This document shows positions 13,387 to 29,000 of a DNA stretch of 29,000 nt, in pieces. Made by a program: the position numbers and the translations under genes. The notes under the pieces were generated by a model that worked only from the letters and a program-made list of their open reading frames with translations, searched no databases and had not been told where the DNA came from. Source of the stretch: Candidatus Bathyarchaeia archaeon (lineage in GTDB: Archaea > Thermoproteota > Bathyarchaeia > Bathyarchaeales > Bathycorpusculaceae); contig DATEAU010000193.1 in the NCBI GenBank assembly GCA_035288165.1, positions 1 through 29,000 of the forward strand, in the 5' to 3' direction. Position 1 is the first letter of the stretch. Each line of letters starts with the position of its first letter.

Positions 13387-14862
13387 ATGATAAAACTCAG
13401 ATTAGACGTTGACTACGCATATCCTTCGAGAATTAAAAGCTTCCTCTATACAGCTCTGAACAGAAAAACAGACAAGAACTACCTGAAAAATTCAAAAATA
13501 ATCGCCAAAATGATTAATGAGTCGCCACGGGAAGTCAAAGCCTTCTGGTTCTTCACCCCGTATACGACGCCGGACAAGGAATTGCTTGAATTGCTAACTT
13601 CCGATAAACACGAAGTTGCCCTTCACGTAGCAAATGACCCTTATGGGGAACTCGAAAAACTGGAGCAGGCGACAAACCGGAAAGTCGAGTTTTACACTGT
13701 TCATGGAACTGCCCGTTTGCTTGCTCGGTTAATGTGGAGACGAAAACTTTGGGAAGCCAGAGCGTCAATTCCCGACGGTTTCCCGCTGCAGTCATTCTAC
13801 GAGTTTCCCACGTTGGGCTTCGATTTAGCTTGCCACAATAACCCACCAGCGCAAGCCGTCGAAATCGCTGAGGCAAGCATAGCTAAAGGAGAAGTATTGC
13901 ATATTCATCCTGAATGGCTTTTCCAGCGAGGGACATACAACCATAGAGGACCATTCTACGAGCCGCTGAAAAAGATACTTCAAGTAGACACGGAGCTCGC
14001 AACCCTGGTTGTCCAAAAAAGAGGGTTTGCCAAGTTAGCCCGGTATGTTGAAACCAAAGAGTACGAACGAGACTTCATTCCAACCGCGAGGCTCCTCGAA
14101 AAACTCTCGGAGAGGGGACTAGATATCTTTACTTTCTTGGAAAGGAAGTGGTGTTGCCCAATCGCCAACCCGTCAGAGACATGGCGCAGGACGGAAGACA
14201 ACATTGCACTTCTCAACGTGGCAACTTATAGCGATTGGCTGGAGCGGGTTGGCAAGAAAACGCGGAACATGGTTCGCAAAGCTGAAAAAAGCGGCGTGAA
14301 AACCGAGGTTGTTGAGAACAATGATAGGTTTGCTGGAGGCGTCTGGAAAGTCTATAATGAGACGCCTATACGGCAAGGGAGAGCGTTCCCCCATTATGGC
14401 AAATCACTGCAAACCGTGAAGGCGATAGTCAATTTAGGTACAAATTTCACGTACATCGGGGCGTTCTTCCAAGATGAGATGGTTGGGTTTTTGCAGCTTG
14501 TCATTGGCGACAAAATTGCTATAATCTCTCAGATTCTTTCTCTACAGAAGCATTCTGACAAAGCGGTGAACAACGCGCTTGTAGCAAAGGCAGTGGAAGT
14601 ATGTGCGGAGAAACAGTGCAGGTGGATTATGTACGGAAGAATGGGAAATCACCCTTCCCTTGACAACTTCAAGCAGAACAACGCCTTCACCAAGTTCTCC
14701 CTCACGCGATATTATGTTCCAACCACTGGGAAAGGGCGAATCGCCATGCGATTAGGATTGCACAAACAAGTAAAAGATGTCGTTCCCCAGCCAATAAAAG
14801 GCTCTCTGATTCCGGTTTACAATTGGGTTAGCCGAAACAAAACGCGAATGAGATTCCATTAA
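13387..14862 (+). CDS. Two-domain protein: N-terminal polysaccharide deacetylase-like (NodB/WbmS-like) domain fused to a C-terminal FemAB/GNAT-like acyltransferase domain
   Basis: N-terminal LRLDVD, EVALH, TVHG and LHIHP resemble CE4-like metal motifs. C-terminal KKTRNMVRKAEKSGV, YIGAFFQDEMVG, NNALVAKAVE and SLDNFKQNNAF resemble Fem/GNAT folds. Confidence 0.65.
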   Translation: MIKLRLDVDYAYPSRIKSFLYTALNRKTDKNYLKNSKIIAKMINESPREVKAFWFFTPYTTPDKELLELLTSDKHEVALHVANDPYGELEKLEQATNRKVEFYTVHGTARLLARLMWRRKLWEARASIPDGFPLQSFYEFPTLGFDLACHNNPPAQAVEIAEASIAKGEVLHIHPEWLFQRGTYNHRGPFYEPLKKILQVDTELATLVVQKRGFAKLARYVETKEYERDFIPTARLLEKLSERGLDIFTFLERKWCCPIANPSETWRRTEDNIALLNVATYSDWLERVGKKTRNMVRKAEKSGVKTEVVENNDRFAGGVWKVYNETPIRQGRAFPHYGKSLQTVKAIVNLGTNFTYIGAFFQDEMVGFLQLVIGDKIAIISQILSLQKHSDKAVNNALVAKAVEVCAEKQCRWIMYGRMGNHPSLDNFKQNNAFTKFSLTRYYVPTTGKGRIAMRLGLHKQVKDVVPQPIKGSLIPVYNWVSRNKTRMRFH

Positions 14863-14967
14863 TTTTCAGGCCGAGCCACTGCCGTCAGGCAAAATGAATA
14901 GCAGTTGTCCAAACAAGATTTAATACGGACATGGACACTATGCAATGAAAACATCCAAGGTGTCACA

Positions 14968-16485
14968 GTGGCAGGAAAGGAGATTCGCCTCCAGTACACA
15001 GGCTACGTCTTATTCGCAGCAAAAATAATCGGCGTAGCGACTGGCCTGATTTTTCAGTTCATGCTGGCGCGTTCAATTCCAAACGACAGCCCAGAATACG
15101 GGATATGGGGCAACATCAATTACGTTCTCCCGTACTTCACATTGCTGGCCGGAGTCGTACCATTCTGGGTTATGCGATGCGTCGCAAGAGGGCAAAAAGG
15201 AGCAACCAAAACAGGACTTGGAATAAACCTGCTCTTTTCATTAATAAGCACAGCCGCTTACCTCATCATTATTCCAATTATCCTGCCGTCACTTCTTTCT
15301 GAAGCAGGAATCGCTAATCCCATAGCCTATCTGCCCTTCTACCTAATTGTTTCAATTCAGATAATCGAAACGTACCTGATCGGACTTTTTGAACCATGCC
15401 TTCAAGCTTCCACGCCACAATCGGTAGGCTACGGATTGATATTGCAACAAGTGTCCAGAGTCATACTGGGCTACGTAATTATCATCCAGCTGGGTCAGCC
15501 ACTACTGGGAGCAATTGTAAGCGGTATCATCGCATTCGCCGTACAAACGGTCTATTATTTAAAACTCGCGAGGAATGAATTGAAAGAACATGTGCAATGG
15601 GGATACGTGAAAGAGTGGCTCAAAGGCTCTGCTCTAAACGTATATTTGGTTGTGGGAGGCCAGATTGCGGCGTTTATTTTCATTATGCTCTTCTATTACG
15701 GTGGAGCGATAAGCATGGAACTATATTATGTAGCCCTTCAGATGGCGAATGTCATCACATATGCTAGCTTCTTATCGTTCGCACTTTATCCGAAACTCTT
15801 GGCAGAAAGACGCGAGGAGGACGTAACGGCTTCGATGAAAACTGTTTTGATGTTCGCCCTTCCCATGACAGTTGGAGCGATAGCATTATCCAGTTCTTAC
15901 ATGGTGCTTCTGAGAGTTAAAACGCTGGAAAATTACCCAGGAGCAGAATGGATCCTCGTAGTGTTAGCTTTGGACGCTTTCGTAACTGTGGTTTCGAGTA
16001 TTTACGCCTCCGTTCTGACAGGGGTTGAAACGGTCGATCAGGAACGAATGTCGTTCAAATCGTTGATTAAAAGCAAACTATTCAGGTACTTCACTTTGTC
16101 CTATTTGCATTCTGCCATAACTATCCCAATTGCGTTTTACGTTTTAACAACTTTCGCTTTCCAACAGCCATTGCTGGCAGCGATTTCCGTGGTTGCCATT
16201 AACTCCGTTGTGCGCTTTGCCATGTTCATAGTCCTGATCGTGATGGTTCGCAAAATATTCAAGGTTGTTGTCCCGTGGAGGAGCATAGGGAAGTATCTTT
16301 TGGCTTCCGCCGCAATGGGTATAGTGCTTGTTCTCTTACCTTACTCAGCTGATATATTCCTAATTTTAGTGTGGACCGCTATTGGCGGCGCAGTCTATTT
16401 GGCACTGTTAATGCTAATTGACAAAGAGGCGCGGGCTCTTCCCATGAATATCCTGCATGAGTTGAGGCGCAAGAAAAAAGATTGA
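14968..16485 (+). CDS. Polysaccharide/oligosaccharide flippase (MOP/Wzx-like membrane transporter)
   Basis: About 505 aa with roughly 12-14 hydrophobic segments. It is the last gene of the glycan locus. GTG 14968 follows AGGTG; an alternative TTG lies at 14905. Confidence 0.8.
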   Translation: MAGKEIRLQYTGYVLFAAKIIGVATGLIFQFMLARSIPNDSPEYGIWGNINYVLPYFTLLAGVVPFWVMRCVARGQKGATKTGLGINLLFSLISTAAYLIIIPIILPSLLSEAGIANPIAYLPFYLIVSIQIIETYLIGLFEPCLQASTPQSVGYGLILQQVSRVILGYVIIIQLGQPLLGAIVSGIIAFAVQTVYYLKLARNELKEHVQWGYVKEWLKGSALNVYLVVGGQIAAFIFIMLFYYGGAISMELYYVALQMANVITYASFLSFALYPKLLAERREEDVTASMKTVLMFALPMTVGAIALSSSYMVLLRVKTLENYPGAEWILVVLALDAFVTVVSSIYASVLTGVETVDQERMSFKSLIKSKLFRYFTLSYLHSAITIPIAFYVLTTFAFQQPLLAAISVVAINSVVRFAMFIVLIVMVRKIFKVVVPWRSIGKYLLASAAMGIVLVLLPYSADIFLILVWTAIGGAVYLALLMLIDKEARALPMNILHELRRKKKD

Positions 16486-25528: not shown

Positions 25529-27268
25529 CTAACGAATTTCCTCACGTAGTCTCAGAAGGATACCGTTGATTGCGGATTCAGCTTTTTCTTTTCGTTTGCG
25601 GAGGTCGTCCAAAGTTTGCTTGTACTCTTCAAGAGGAATTTCACCTGTTCTATGGCGAGCTTCGGCGTTTCTTATGTTTGCTTCGATCTTGTTGAGTTCG
25701 GTTTCTGTAGCATCAAGTTGCTTAACGAGGTTTGCGTAATTGCCGCCGGCGTTGCGGAAAGCGGCCTTCAATTCATTTATTTGCCTGGATAGGGAGTCGA
25801 AGCGAAGCTCTAATGCTCTGCGCTGCACTTTGTACTGGCGTCTCGGGATCTTGCCTTTCTGAGCTCTGGCCACCAAGGACTTTAATTCTTGAGATATTTT
25901 GCTTCTTTCCTCGTAAGCTTCGACGAAAGCTCTAACATGATCTCGGCTGAAACTCGCGGATAACTTAGGCACTTGCATCTTCGGCGGCGCATGAGGCTTG
26001 GGTCTCCGCAAGAAAGCACCAACCACGATTCCCACAGCAGCAAGAGCCCAAACCCATAGGGTGGGACGAAGAGAAAGCCATAGGGGGTTATAGTCGTAGG
26101 CGAACTGTAGAACGTTCTCGATGGGAACATCGCGGTCTATGTAGCTTACGCCTTCCCGATTAATTCTCAAGGTTTCTTGAAAGAGTTCCCTGTCCAAACT
26201 TGAATAAGGGTCTGCCGAGGAGAGCGAAGGCATCACGATGTGGGCGCCTTCAGGAGGAACGATGCTGACGGAAGCGATGTATACATAGTAGCTTAAATAA
26301 GGAAAAAGTTCAAGTTCCGAAGCAAAACGCGTCTGTTCAGGAGGCAAAATCGGGAAGCTGTAATCGATCTCGATAGTCCCAGATTGACCGCCGCGCAATG
26401 CCCCCAACAATGTCACGTTAACTGGCACAACTATGGGGTTGCGGCTATCCGAAAGAATTTGCACTGCCAGCGCTCTGCCAAAATCGTCTTTTCCAGCAAT
26501 GTTGAAAGCGTTAGCTGGTACATCTAGCTTAAGCGAGCCGATTTCGTCGGTTGAGTTATTGACGATGCGGTAACTGTCTGAAACAGCTATTTCGCCAGCA
26601 GGACCCAAAGTTACAACTCGGTTGAGCGAAGTGATGGCTATTTGCCGAACTAAAGCGGCAGGGATGTTAAGGTTCGCAGTTGCAGGGAAATAAGCTAAAG
26701 CTGGCAAGTTTTCTTTTACAAAAGTTATCTTTGAAACGACGCCATCGTTTTTCGTGACGTTGAAAAGCGTGGAACCCTCAGGCAAGATCAGGGTTACGTT
26801 GGAGCGGGAAGCTGCCTGCGCCAGACTGGGGTACGCTGGGAAGTCAAGGCTGAAGCCTTCGGCGGTTTTGGTTAAAAGGTTGTTTGCAAGGATGAAAACG
26901 ACTGTGAAGACTTGTGGGGAGCCTTCTGGGAAGGTAACTTCGGTGCCGTAGAAGCCGCTTTGGTCGCCAAGTCGTACTCCCAAGTTCATCGGATAAACCT
27001 GGTCTGTACTGAATGCCACGGCTTTGAGAAGGTAAGCGCCGTACTTGTAGGGAAAACCAATTAGGAAACCTCCGGTTATTTGACCACTCACGGTAAAGGT
27101 GTCACGTATTACGACGTTTCCCGAGTACATGATTTCGATTTGATGTTCAACGTTCTGTATCGTATAGCCAGCTGCCTGAGCGGAAGCGGTTTTGATTCCG
27201 AAGGAAACGGATGAGAGAACAGCTAGTAATAGAACGGCGAGAATGAGGATGGAAGTGACCTTTTTCAA
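25529..27268 (-). CDS. Ribophorin I (RPN1/OST1)-like type I membrane glycoprotein
   Basis: 579 aa: signal peptide, duplicated beta-rich extracellular region, one TM helix (LWVWALAAVGIVVGAFL) and a cytoplasmic coiled-coil domain. ITSLNRVV..GEIAV, VPANA…KDDFG, LRGGQ…Y, PPEGA and YDYN..L…P line up with ribophorin I motifs. Confidence 0.7.
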   Translation of the reverse strand: MKKVTSILILAVLLLAVLSSVSFGIKTASAQAAGYTIQNVEHQIEIMYSGNVVIRDTFTVSGQITGGFLIGFPYKYGAYLLKAVAFSTDQVYPMNLGVRLGDQSGFYGTEVTFPEGSPQVFTVVFILANNLLTKTAEGFSLDFPAYPSLAQAASRSNVTLILPEGSTLFNVTKNDGVVSKITFVKENLPALAYFPATANLNIPAALVRQIAITSLNRVVTLGPAGEIAVSDSYRIVNNSTDEIGSLKLDVPANAFNIAGKDDFGRALAVQILSDSRNPIVVPVNVTLLGALRGGQSGTIEIDYSFPILPPEQTRFASELELFPYLSYYVYIASVSIVPPEGAHIVMPSLSSADPYSSLDRELFQETLRINREGVSYIDRDVPIENVLQFAYDYNPLWLSLRPTLWVWALAAVGIVVGAFLRRPKPHAPPKMQVPKLSASFSRDHVRAFVEAYEERSKISQELKSLVARAQKGKIPRRQYKVQRRALELRFDSLSRQINELKAAFRNAGGNYANLVKQLDATETELNKIEANIRNAEARHRTGEIPLEEYKQTLDDLRKRKEKAESAINGILLRLREEIR

Positions 27269-28493: not shown

Positions 28494-29000
28494 TCAGCGC
28501 TTTAACATTTGTTCGTAAAGCACAAGTGTTTTCTCGGCGATTTTGCTCCACGTAAATTCTTGGAGAACTCTTTTTCTGCCGTTCTTTCCCAGCCATTTCC
28601 GTTTTTCAGGGCTTTCCAAAGCGCTCATTATACCCCATGCAATATCGGAGGGATTATTTGGATCTATGTGGTAACCGCATTGTTCTTCGCTGCAGCAGAT
28701 GACTATTTCGCGCATGCCGCTGACGCCTGCTGCTCCGACGACTACTGGTTTTTCCATGCTCATTGCTTCTAGAGCTACGATGCCGAAGGGTTCGTAAAAG
28801 CTCGGGAAGCACGCGATGTCGCAGGCTGCGTAGTGTTGAATTCGTTCTTCTTCTGGGATAAAGTCGAAGCGGAAACGCACGTAATCGTCCAGCCGCATGG
28901 TACGTGTTAGGTTCGTCAGGTATTCTTGGAGGTCTCCGACGCCGACGATGACTAGTTTTGCCTTTGGGTATTTGCTTAGTACGTGGGGCATTGACATGAT
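28494..29000 (-). CDS. Glycosyltransferase family 4 (GT-B), C-terminal part; the start lies beyond the window
   Basis: KLVIVGVG, DIACFPSFYEPFGIVALEAM (ExxxxxxxE motif) and FTWSKIAEKT. Confidence 0.9.
   Translation of the reverse strand: MMSMPHVLSKYPKAKLVIVGVGDLQEYLTNLTRTMRLDDYVRFRFDFIPEEERIQHYAACDIACFPSFYEPFGIVALEAMSMEKPVVVGAAGVSGMREIVICCSEEQCGYHIDPNNPSDIAWGIMSALESPEKRKWLGKNGRKRVLQEFTWSKIAEKTLVLYEQMLKR

Follow-up and report, generated by a model that had tools for sequence, protein, structure and literature searches.

Does an archaeon outside the Asgard lineages encode a full-length ribophorin I (RPN1, Ost1), the non-catalytic subunit 1 of the eukaryotic oligosaccharyltransferase (OST)? The question is raised by a gene near the end of a 29,000-nucleotide stretch of contig DATEAU010000193.1 (positions 1 to 29,000 of the forward strand; hereafter the window), part of a Candidatus Bathyarchaeia metagenome-assembled genome (MAG; GCA_035288165.1). 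The initial annotation, made from the letters alone, proposed such a protein for the open reading frame (ORF) at 25529-27268 and suggested that it might belong to a multi-subunit OST. Our follow-up indicates, from sequence profiles and a structural model, that its product is a type I membrane glycoprotein whose homology to ribophorin I/Ost1 is of orthologue grade, and that it matches the long type found in metazoans, plants and Asgard archaea.

The relationship emerges from profiles rather than from the single sequence. Searches with the query alone against Pfam, NCBIfam and the PDB returned coiled-coil noise and a borderline REX1B match only, with nothing from the PDB; because none of them gave an OST1 match, profiles were needed. 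Homologs are plentiful, with 336 matches in a collection clustered at 90% (about half of those listed carry a precomputed tag for the Pfam ribophorin I family, PF04597) and 193 representatives at 50% clustering. PF04597 is matched individually by 26 of 44 aligned close homologs (best E 3.2e-11) and by 57 of 71 members of the broader family (best E 2e-24). When run against the PDB, the narrower of our two profiles, A1, found human RPN1 (E 2.6e-8) and 8WHN (E 1.1e-6), the cytosolic domain of OST1 from the Lokiarchaeon Candidatus Prometheoarchaeum syntrophicum MK-D1. The broader profile, A2, draws on 71 full-length representatives, each of which phmmer finds with the query, and gave E 6.9e-29 against human RPN1, E 2.5e-19 against 8WHN and E 2.5e-13 against yeast Ost1. 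Its alignment with RPN1 is collinear over the full length (13-571 versus 8-605), covering the signal peptide, both beta domains, the transmembrane (TM) helix and the C-terminal helical bundle (RPN1 465-605); the alignment starts at residue 8 and takes in the first beta-sandwich domain. These HMMER profile alignments reproduce all six of the motif matches to human RPN1 that the initial annotation had put forward: ILPAAAQDVYYRDEIG, LFGGWKTHYIVGYNLP, IILPEGAKNI and VHYTFNKVLMLQEPLLVV with A1, and DVPAYS and ITSMTRVIEVSHWGNIAV with A2.

The 579-residue product is read from the minus strand with a TTG start codon. An AlphaFold 2 (AF2) model built on 44 homologs, with a mean predicted local distance difference test (pLDDT) score of 83.3, divides it into the following parts.

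25529..27268, minus strand: whole OST1/ribophorin I-like gene, 579 codons plus the stop (25529-25531), supported by profiles and Foldseek.
27176..27268, minus strand: predicted signal peptide and low-confidence linker, residues 1-31 (helix 2-19; pLDDT below 50 at 20-31).
26654..27175, minus strand: first extracellular beta-sandwich, residues 32-205 (AF2 strands 35-201), equivalent to the N-terminal lumenal domain of Ost1.
26084..26653, minus strand: second, membrane-proximal beta-sandwich, residues 206-395 (AF2 and VIA-align; profile alignment to RPN1 273-440).
26003..26083, minus strand: juxtamembrane motif YNPLWLSLRPTLWVW and single TM helix, residues 396-422 (helix 401-420), aligned with the RPN1 TM region.
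25946..26002, minus strand: basic, proline-rich cytosolic linker, residues 423-441 (pLDDT below 50 at 421-439; R422 and P423 invariant).
25532..25945, minus strand: cytosolic four-helix bundle, residues 442-579 (AF2 helices 442-470, 476-507, 510-540 and 546-578).
25823..25867, minus strand: most conserved 15-mer, RAQKGKIPRRQYKVQ, residues 468-482, a basic loop between bundle helices 1 and 2 (mean majority fraction 0.91).
26549..26560, minus strand: double sequon NNST, residues 237-240, kept in 38/44 and 34/44 homologs.
26411..26419, minus strand: sequon NVT, residues 284-286, kept in 38/44 homologs.

Sequence and AF2 model agree on a type I topology, with a signal peptide, a large exoplasmic part, a single TM helix and a cytosolic C-terminus. 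The signal peptide begins with MKK, continues with a hydrophobic core and ends in ASA followed by Q, so that cleavage after ASA, before Q31, is probable. RRPKP follows the TM helix directly, in keeping with the positive-inside rule, and across the homologs W397 and W407 are invariant and P402 nearly so in the juxtamembrane and TM segment. The signal peptide, the two beta-rich domains and the single TM helix had been predicted from the sequence and are borne out here, as are the NVT and NNS/NST sequons: besides those listed above, NVT occurs at residues 157 (N157 in 28/44 homologs) and 170 (N170 in 8/44). The predicted cytoplasmic coiled coil needs correcting, being a four-helix bundle in the model (helices 442-578). 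This bundle, the most conserved domain of the Bathyarchaeia family, has a net charge that averages +7.9, in contrast to an acidic ectodomain with no cysteines; the conserved 15-mer supplied the search pattern [IM]PRR[RQ]YKVQ. The bundle is the homologous counterpart of the ribosome-binding domain in RPN1 and MK-D1 OST1.

Comparison of folds leads to the same assignment. Foldseek against the PDB placed OST1/RPN1 chains in all of the top eight positions (E 4e-27 to 8e-17), with the next fold class at 2e-7, and against the Swiss-Prot part of the AlphaFold database the top 15 matches were all OST subunit 1, the long metazoan and plant forms first. VIA-align superposed the model on OST1 chains with Z 22-26 over 365-371 residues at about 5 Å; the alignments with yeast and human OST1 run from model residue 28 or 33 to 426 or 427. 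Residues 439-579 taken separately align with 8WHN at Z 15.3 and a root mean square deviation of 2.9 Å over 141 of 142 residues. The second beta domain on its own also resembles the N-domain of M1 aminopeptidases and LTA4H (Z ~12.8). Since the top matches are OST1, a resemblance limited to S-layer or aminopeptidase N-terminal domains is excluded; those matches are single-domain, at Z ~12-13. Taken at the level of profile and fold, these results go well past what chance would give and identify the predicted protein as a true ribophorin I/OST1 homolog.

One other family was considered for the bundle. Residues 444-524 reach 24.1 bits against Pfam DNA_repr_REX1B (PF14966), with a cut-off of 24. We rejected membership of that family: PF14966 is matched by 5/44 homologs only, Rex1B is a small stand-alone domain whereas this is a 579-residue membrane protein, and the bundle is closer to 8WHN (Z 15.3) than to fission-yeast Rex1BD (8j0h_B; Z 13.1). 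The Rex1B domain may have its fold or its origin in common with the C-terminal domain of RPN1, and a shared fold does not imply family membership. As a practical matter, the borderline score is one that could lead automated annotation to mislabel the OST1-like protein as REX1B.

If the protein is OST1, which partners does its genome offer? The window contains no aglB/STT3 gene, as had been noted at the outset. One STT3-type AglB of 762 residues is encoded on contig C143 of the same genome (139.5 bits). Contig C218 encodes an OSTC/DC2-like protein (L002:217-648, plus strand), a three-helix membrane protein of 143 residues that scores 33.6 bits against Pfam OST3_OST6 (PF04756); a profile of its family matches human OSTC/DC2 over the full length at E 4.2e-13, as against E 0.25 for MAGT1, and although its own model is modest (pLDDT 67), Foldseek ranks OSTC chains from OST-A structures in the first four places. 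OST1 thus co-occurs in one genome with an STT3-type catalytic subunit and an OSTC-like subunit, the three genes being unlinked. Across the phylum, 110 of the 251 genomes sampled encode the OSTC-like protein, including 38/38 in the host class. Outside the class it is present in 16/22 OST1-positive versus 56/191 OST1-negative genomes, and the OST1-like and OSTC-like proteins are lacking in the same large families; this co-distribution is only suggestive, because related genomes are not independent. A complex prediction for AglB (762 residues) and OST1 residues 205-440, from which the first beta domain and the bundle were omitted, returned no verdict (score 0.00) and is evidence neither way. The multi-subunit OST that the initial annotation supposed is a hypothesis consistent with the presence of AglB and the OSTC/DC2-like protein.

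Several results weigh against assigning the protein to OST1 and to an OST complex. The query alone has no match to PF04597, for which the gathering score is 25 bits, even at E 10, and the PF04597 model finds no match in the whole host genome. Identity to eukaryotic OST1 is only 12-17%. In none of 80 related loci is aglB or an OSTC-like (OST3/6-type) gene found within 6 kb of OST1, so gene order gives no operon support. Lastly, searches of the 81%-complete genome for Ost5, Ost4, Ost2/DAD1, Wbp1/OST48 and TRAP-beta returned none above noise, although tiny TM proteins are hard to find; in yeast, Ost5 packs against the Ost1 TM helix, and the interfaces between OST subcomplexes are loose and mediated by lipid and Ost5 (PMC7226087). 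The Pfam check proposed at the start therefore gives a divided answer: the query itself has no match, and 57/71 of its family members do. The protein has all the structural features of long-type OST1 and falls short on the single-sequence Pfam threshold alone, which its relatives pass.

We consider it fairly probable that the OST1-like protein serves AglB as an accessory subunit and, together with the OSTC-like protein, keeps AglB at the translocon formed by ribosome and SecYEG, where glycosylation would be co-translational. Conservation in the family peaks in the bundle and its basic loop, the bundle is basic, and MK-D1 OST1 and RPN1 offer an analogy; a role in docking AglB at the ribosome would fit these observations. 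The bundle of MK-D1 OST1 binds ribosomes in pull-downs, as RPN1 does in OST-A (PMC11417166). Mammalian OST has RPN1 as a constitutive subunit, whose bundle contacts the ribosome in OST-A, and DC2 docks STT3A on Sec61 in that complex (PMC5674889, PMC11417166). In our model, the OST1-like protein would work alongside the STT3-type AglB at the cytoplasmic membrane without taking part in catalysis. Its ectodomain would lie beside the external domain of AglB, where it could handle the nascent or just-glycosylated chain, and its four-helix bundle would contact the translating ribosome through the conserved basic loop KGKIPRRxYKVQRR. Together, OST1 and the OSTC/DC2-like protein would keep AglB next to SecYEG, allowing co-translational N-glycosylation as in mammalian OST-A.

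An alternative that accepts the homology is that the protein acts independently of AglB, as a general ribosome receptor, a translocon accessory or an extracellular holdase for secreted chains, with its basic bundle tethering translating ribosomes to the membrane. Ribophorin I owes its name to binding ribosomes, and the cytosolic domain of MK-D1 OST1 binds them by itself. The unlinked aglB in the 80 loci would fit such a role, and the neighbours that do recur hint at a folding theme: a parvulin-type peptidyl-prolyl isomerase is encoded directly downstream of OST1 in 39/80 loci (for example, L066:8263-8784, plus strand), and in 33/80 a thioredoxin-domain protein is encoded at a distance of about 3.5 kb (for example, L053:11349-12275, minus strand); most of these loci belong to related Bathyarchaeia of peat and soil, and they are not independent. 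Short relatives that keep the membrane-proximal domain, TM helix and bundle and lack the first beta domain could also be read this way. Against it, OST1 is a stoichiometric OST subunit in every solved eukaryotic structure, the gene co-occurs here with those for an STT3-type AglB and an OSTC-like subunit, and the conserved sequons, together with the glycopeptide-binding role of Ost1 (PMC7226087), fit an OST context. We regard an AglB-independent function as unlikely, and retain the accessory-subunit role as our working model.

A further question is whether the gene belongs to its host by descent. The host is a member of the Bathyarchaeia, within TACK, and is not an Asgard archaeon, as the initial annotation had thought likely: all named relatives of the OST1-like protein are Bathyarchaeota/Bathyarchaeia, the PurB, Hel308 and GT4 glycosyltransferase of the window are 85-91% identical to, and syntenic with, those of a 1.14 Mb Bathyarchaeota contig, and NCBI taxonomy places Bathyarchaeia under Thermoproteati (TACK). 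The MAG itself is 1.55 Mb. The OST1-like family is present in at least 241 GTDB species genomes. In the host class it was found in 143 of 201 sampled genomes, 90/120 high-quality genomes and 73/88 genera, so that it is nearly universal in Bathyarchaeia and a core gene of the class. In the phylum outside the class, 22/213 sampled genomes carry it, some families at 6/6 and large ones at 0/37 and 0/19; the profile used for this census was built on Bathyarchaeia members and probably undercounts distant ones, and distant genome matches retain mostly residues 280-578.

That patchiness outside the class is what a recent horizontal acquisition from Asgard archaea or eukaryotes might leave behind, and such a transfer would make the gene silent on the age of OST. 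We think this quite improbable. The genus and high-quality-genome counts given above show how widely the class carries the gene. Identity inside the family drops to 21-25%, and in a quick maximum-likelihood tree of the 71 representatives, named Bathyarchaeota members occur to either side of the midpoint; as every named member of that set is from Bathyarchaeota, the tree shows only deep divergence in the class. The G+C content of the gene (0.46-0.47) is typical of the window, and local synteny is conserved among relatives. Wide presence, deep divergence, typical G+C and conserved synteny argue for long residence rather than recent transfer.

The weakest alternative, which we judge the least probable of all, is a structural, adhesive or envelope-anchoring cell-surface glycoprotein that shares an ancient architecture with OST1 and uses its bundle for another partner (Cdv/ESCRT-like or Rex1B-like): single beta-sandwiches do resemble ITIH and the N-domains of M1 aminopeptidases and LTA4H (Z ~12-13, E ~1e-6 to 1e-7), the bundle does resemble Rex1BD (8j0h, PF14966) and 17/44 members have weak CdvA-like coiled-coil matches, but the whole-length, same-order OST1 match is far stronger (E 4e-27 versus 2e-7; Z 26 versus 13), the profiles are collinear from signal peptide through both domains and TM helix to bundle, and the CdvA and other coiled-coil matches are all below cut-offs.

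Two sets of relatives deserve separate mention. First, OST1-like genes occur on contigs of MAGs labelled Sulfotelmatobacter, Acidoferrum, Limnocylindrales and Nanoarchaeia (DATGZD010000055.1, DATIXS010000035.1, DATHCJ010000053.1 and DATJPJ010000107.1). On the first of these contigs (L017), PurB and Hel308 are each 80% identical to those of the window, with the archaeal synteny in common, and the four oddly labelled contigs are probably mis-binned or mislabelled records. Second, some Bathyarchaeia genomes encode only short OST1 relatives of 394-410 residues (L118:1904-3136, minus strand; L119:1637-2821, plus strand; L120:1661-2893, plus strand), which consist of the membrane-proximal beta-sandwich, TM helix and bundle, with the first beta domain missing, and which match profile columns 220-581 (hhalign E 7e-60). 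An origin of these forms by gene splitting was rejected, as the upstream ORF encodes a hexapeptide-repeat transferase dissimilar to the first beta domain. The uncharacterised protein MJ1254 of M. jannaschii (Swiss-Prot Q58651, 469 residues) also corresponds to that half of the model (Foldseek E 1.3e-11), a hint of half-size OST1 relatives in Euryarchaeota.

On the minus strand of the window, OST1 comes after genes for a GT4 glycosyltransferase, a nucleotidyltransferase and a DUF2095 protein, and it is convergent with an asparagine-synthase-like gene. Only the closer 15-22 of the 80 loci retain the order GT4-nucleotidyltransferase-DUF2095-OST1-AsnB-PurB-Hel308, which looks like plain local synteny. 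The GT4 gene (28494-29000, minus strand) is cut by the window end; its product is unusually conserved, being 81-91% identical across genomes whose OST1 proteins are merely 45-57% identical. Farther away, an rmlACBD/glycosyltransferase locus ends in two ORFs, 13387-14862 (plus strand, 491 residues) and 14905-16485 (plus strand, 526 residues). Pfam searches gave no match for either, save a weak GNAT match in 13387-14862; with no Pfam match at E 0.1 for 14905-16485, the earlier label of flippase is unconfirmed.

How does the protein compare with those already characterized? A close counterpart is human RPN1 (6S7O_E, 8PN9_E, 8B6L_O, 6S7T_E; P04843), with 579 versus 607 residues, an identical domain order, Foldseek E 4e-27 and VIA-align Z 25.6-26.0. 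The two differ in that identity is 13-16%, the archaeal protein would reside at the cytoplasmic membrane and the human one in the endoplasmic reticulum, and the basic loop is not conserved in RPN1; the human partners OST48, DAD1, OST4 and TMEM258 were not detected in the archaeal genome, Ribophorin II not having been searched for. MK-D1 OST1 (8WHN; PMC11417166) is likewise an archaeal OST1 with a matching four-helix bundle, and profile alignments show a basic stretch and a Tyr between helices 1 and 2 in both. Its host is an Asgard archaeon, in contrast to the TACK host here, bundle identity is ~18%, and its domain binds ribosomes in vitro, whereas the Bathyarchaeia family is known from sequence and models; a TRAP subunit was not detected in the Bathyarchaeia genome, where TRAP-beta only was searched. 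Yeast Ost1 (6EZN_A, 6C26_1, 7OCI_A, 8AGB_E) shares the ectodomain and TM fold (Z 22-25 over ~365 residues) but is without the cytosolic four-helix bundle, and it pairs with Ost5, which was not found in the archaeal genome.

The family is not new to the databases. GenBank KYH42048.1 is already named 'Ribophorin 1 superfamily protein [Candidatus Bathyarchaeota archaeon B26-1]'; it is of the same protein family and archaeal class and sits in the 90% cluster of P0187, which phmmer reaches directly from the query. The record is partial, and its identity to the window protein is ~30%. Elsewhere in GenBank, members from Bathyarchaeota MAGs mostly carry just the label 'hypothetical protein', and UniProt and AlphaFold database clusters hold prokaryotic entries auto-named 'Ribophorin I'. 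In the Asgard literature, Ost1 is treated as a eukaryotic signature protein with prokaryotic homologs solely in Asgard archaea (PMC10307638, PMC8813620), and a 2024 paper in the Journal of Biological Chemistry places OST1 and OST3/6, in one sentence, in both TACK and Asgard archaea (PMC11417166). Given the GenBank name and that sentence, the novelty of an OST1 outside Asgard archaea is modest, and the initial annotation overestimated it. We found no paper, in the literature searched, that treats DC2 together with Asgard OST.

What the window adds is a well-supported, full-length OST1 from Bathyarchaeia, with a ribosome-binding-type bundle that is absent in yeast. The census of Bathyarchaeia supports the view that a multi-subunit and possibly translocon-coupled OST is older, with a TACK-plus-Asgard origin, and abundant environmental lineages become places in which such an origin can be tested. 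More tentatively, and with the odds in our view against it, Bathyarchaeia and several other TACK lineages might possess a three-part machine similar to OST-A, made up of AglB, a ribosome-gripping long OST1 and an OSTC/DC2-like docking subunit; the coupling would then predate the Asgard-TACK split, and a DC2-type protein would be ancestral to Ost3/6. If this were true, ribosome- and translocon-coupled N-glycosylation and its two mammalian mediators would be neither Asgard nor eukaryotic inventions.

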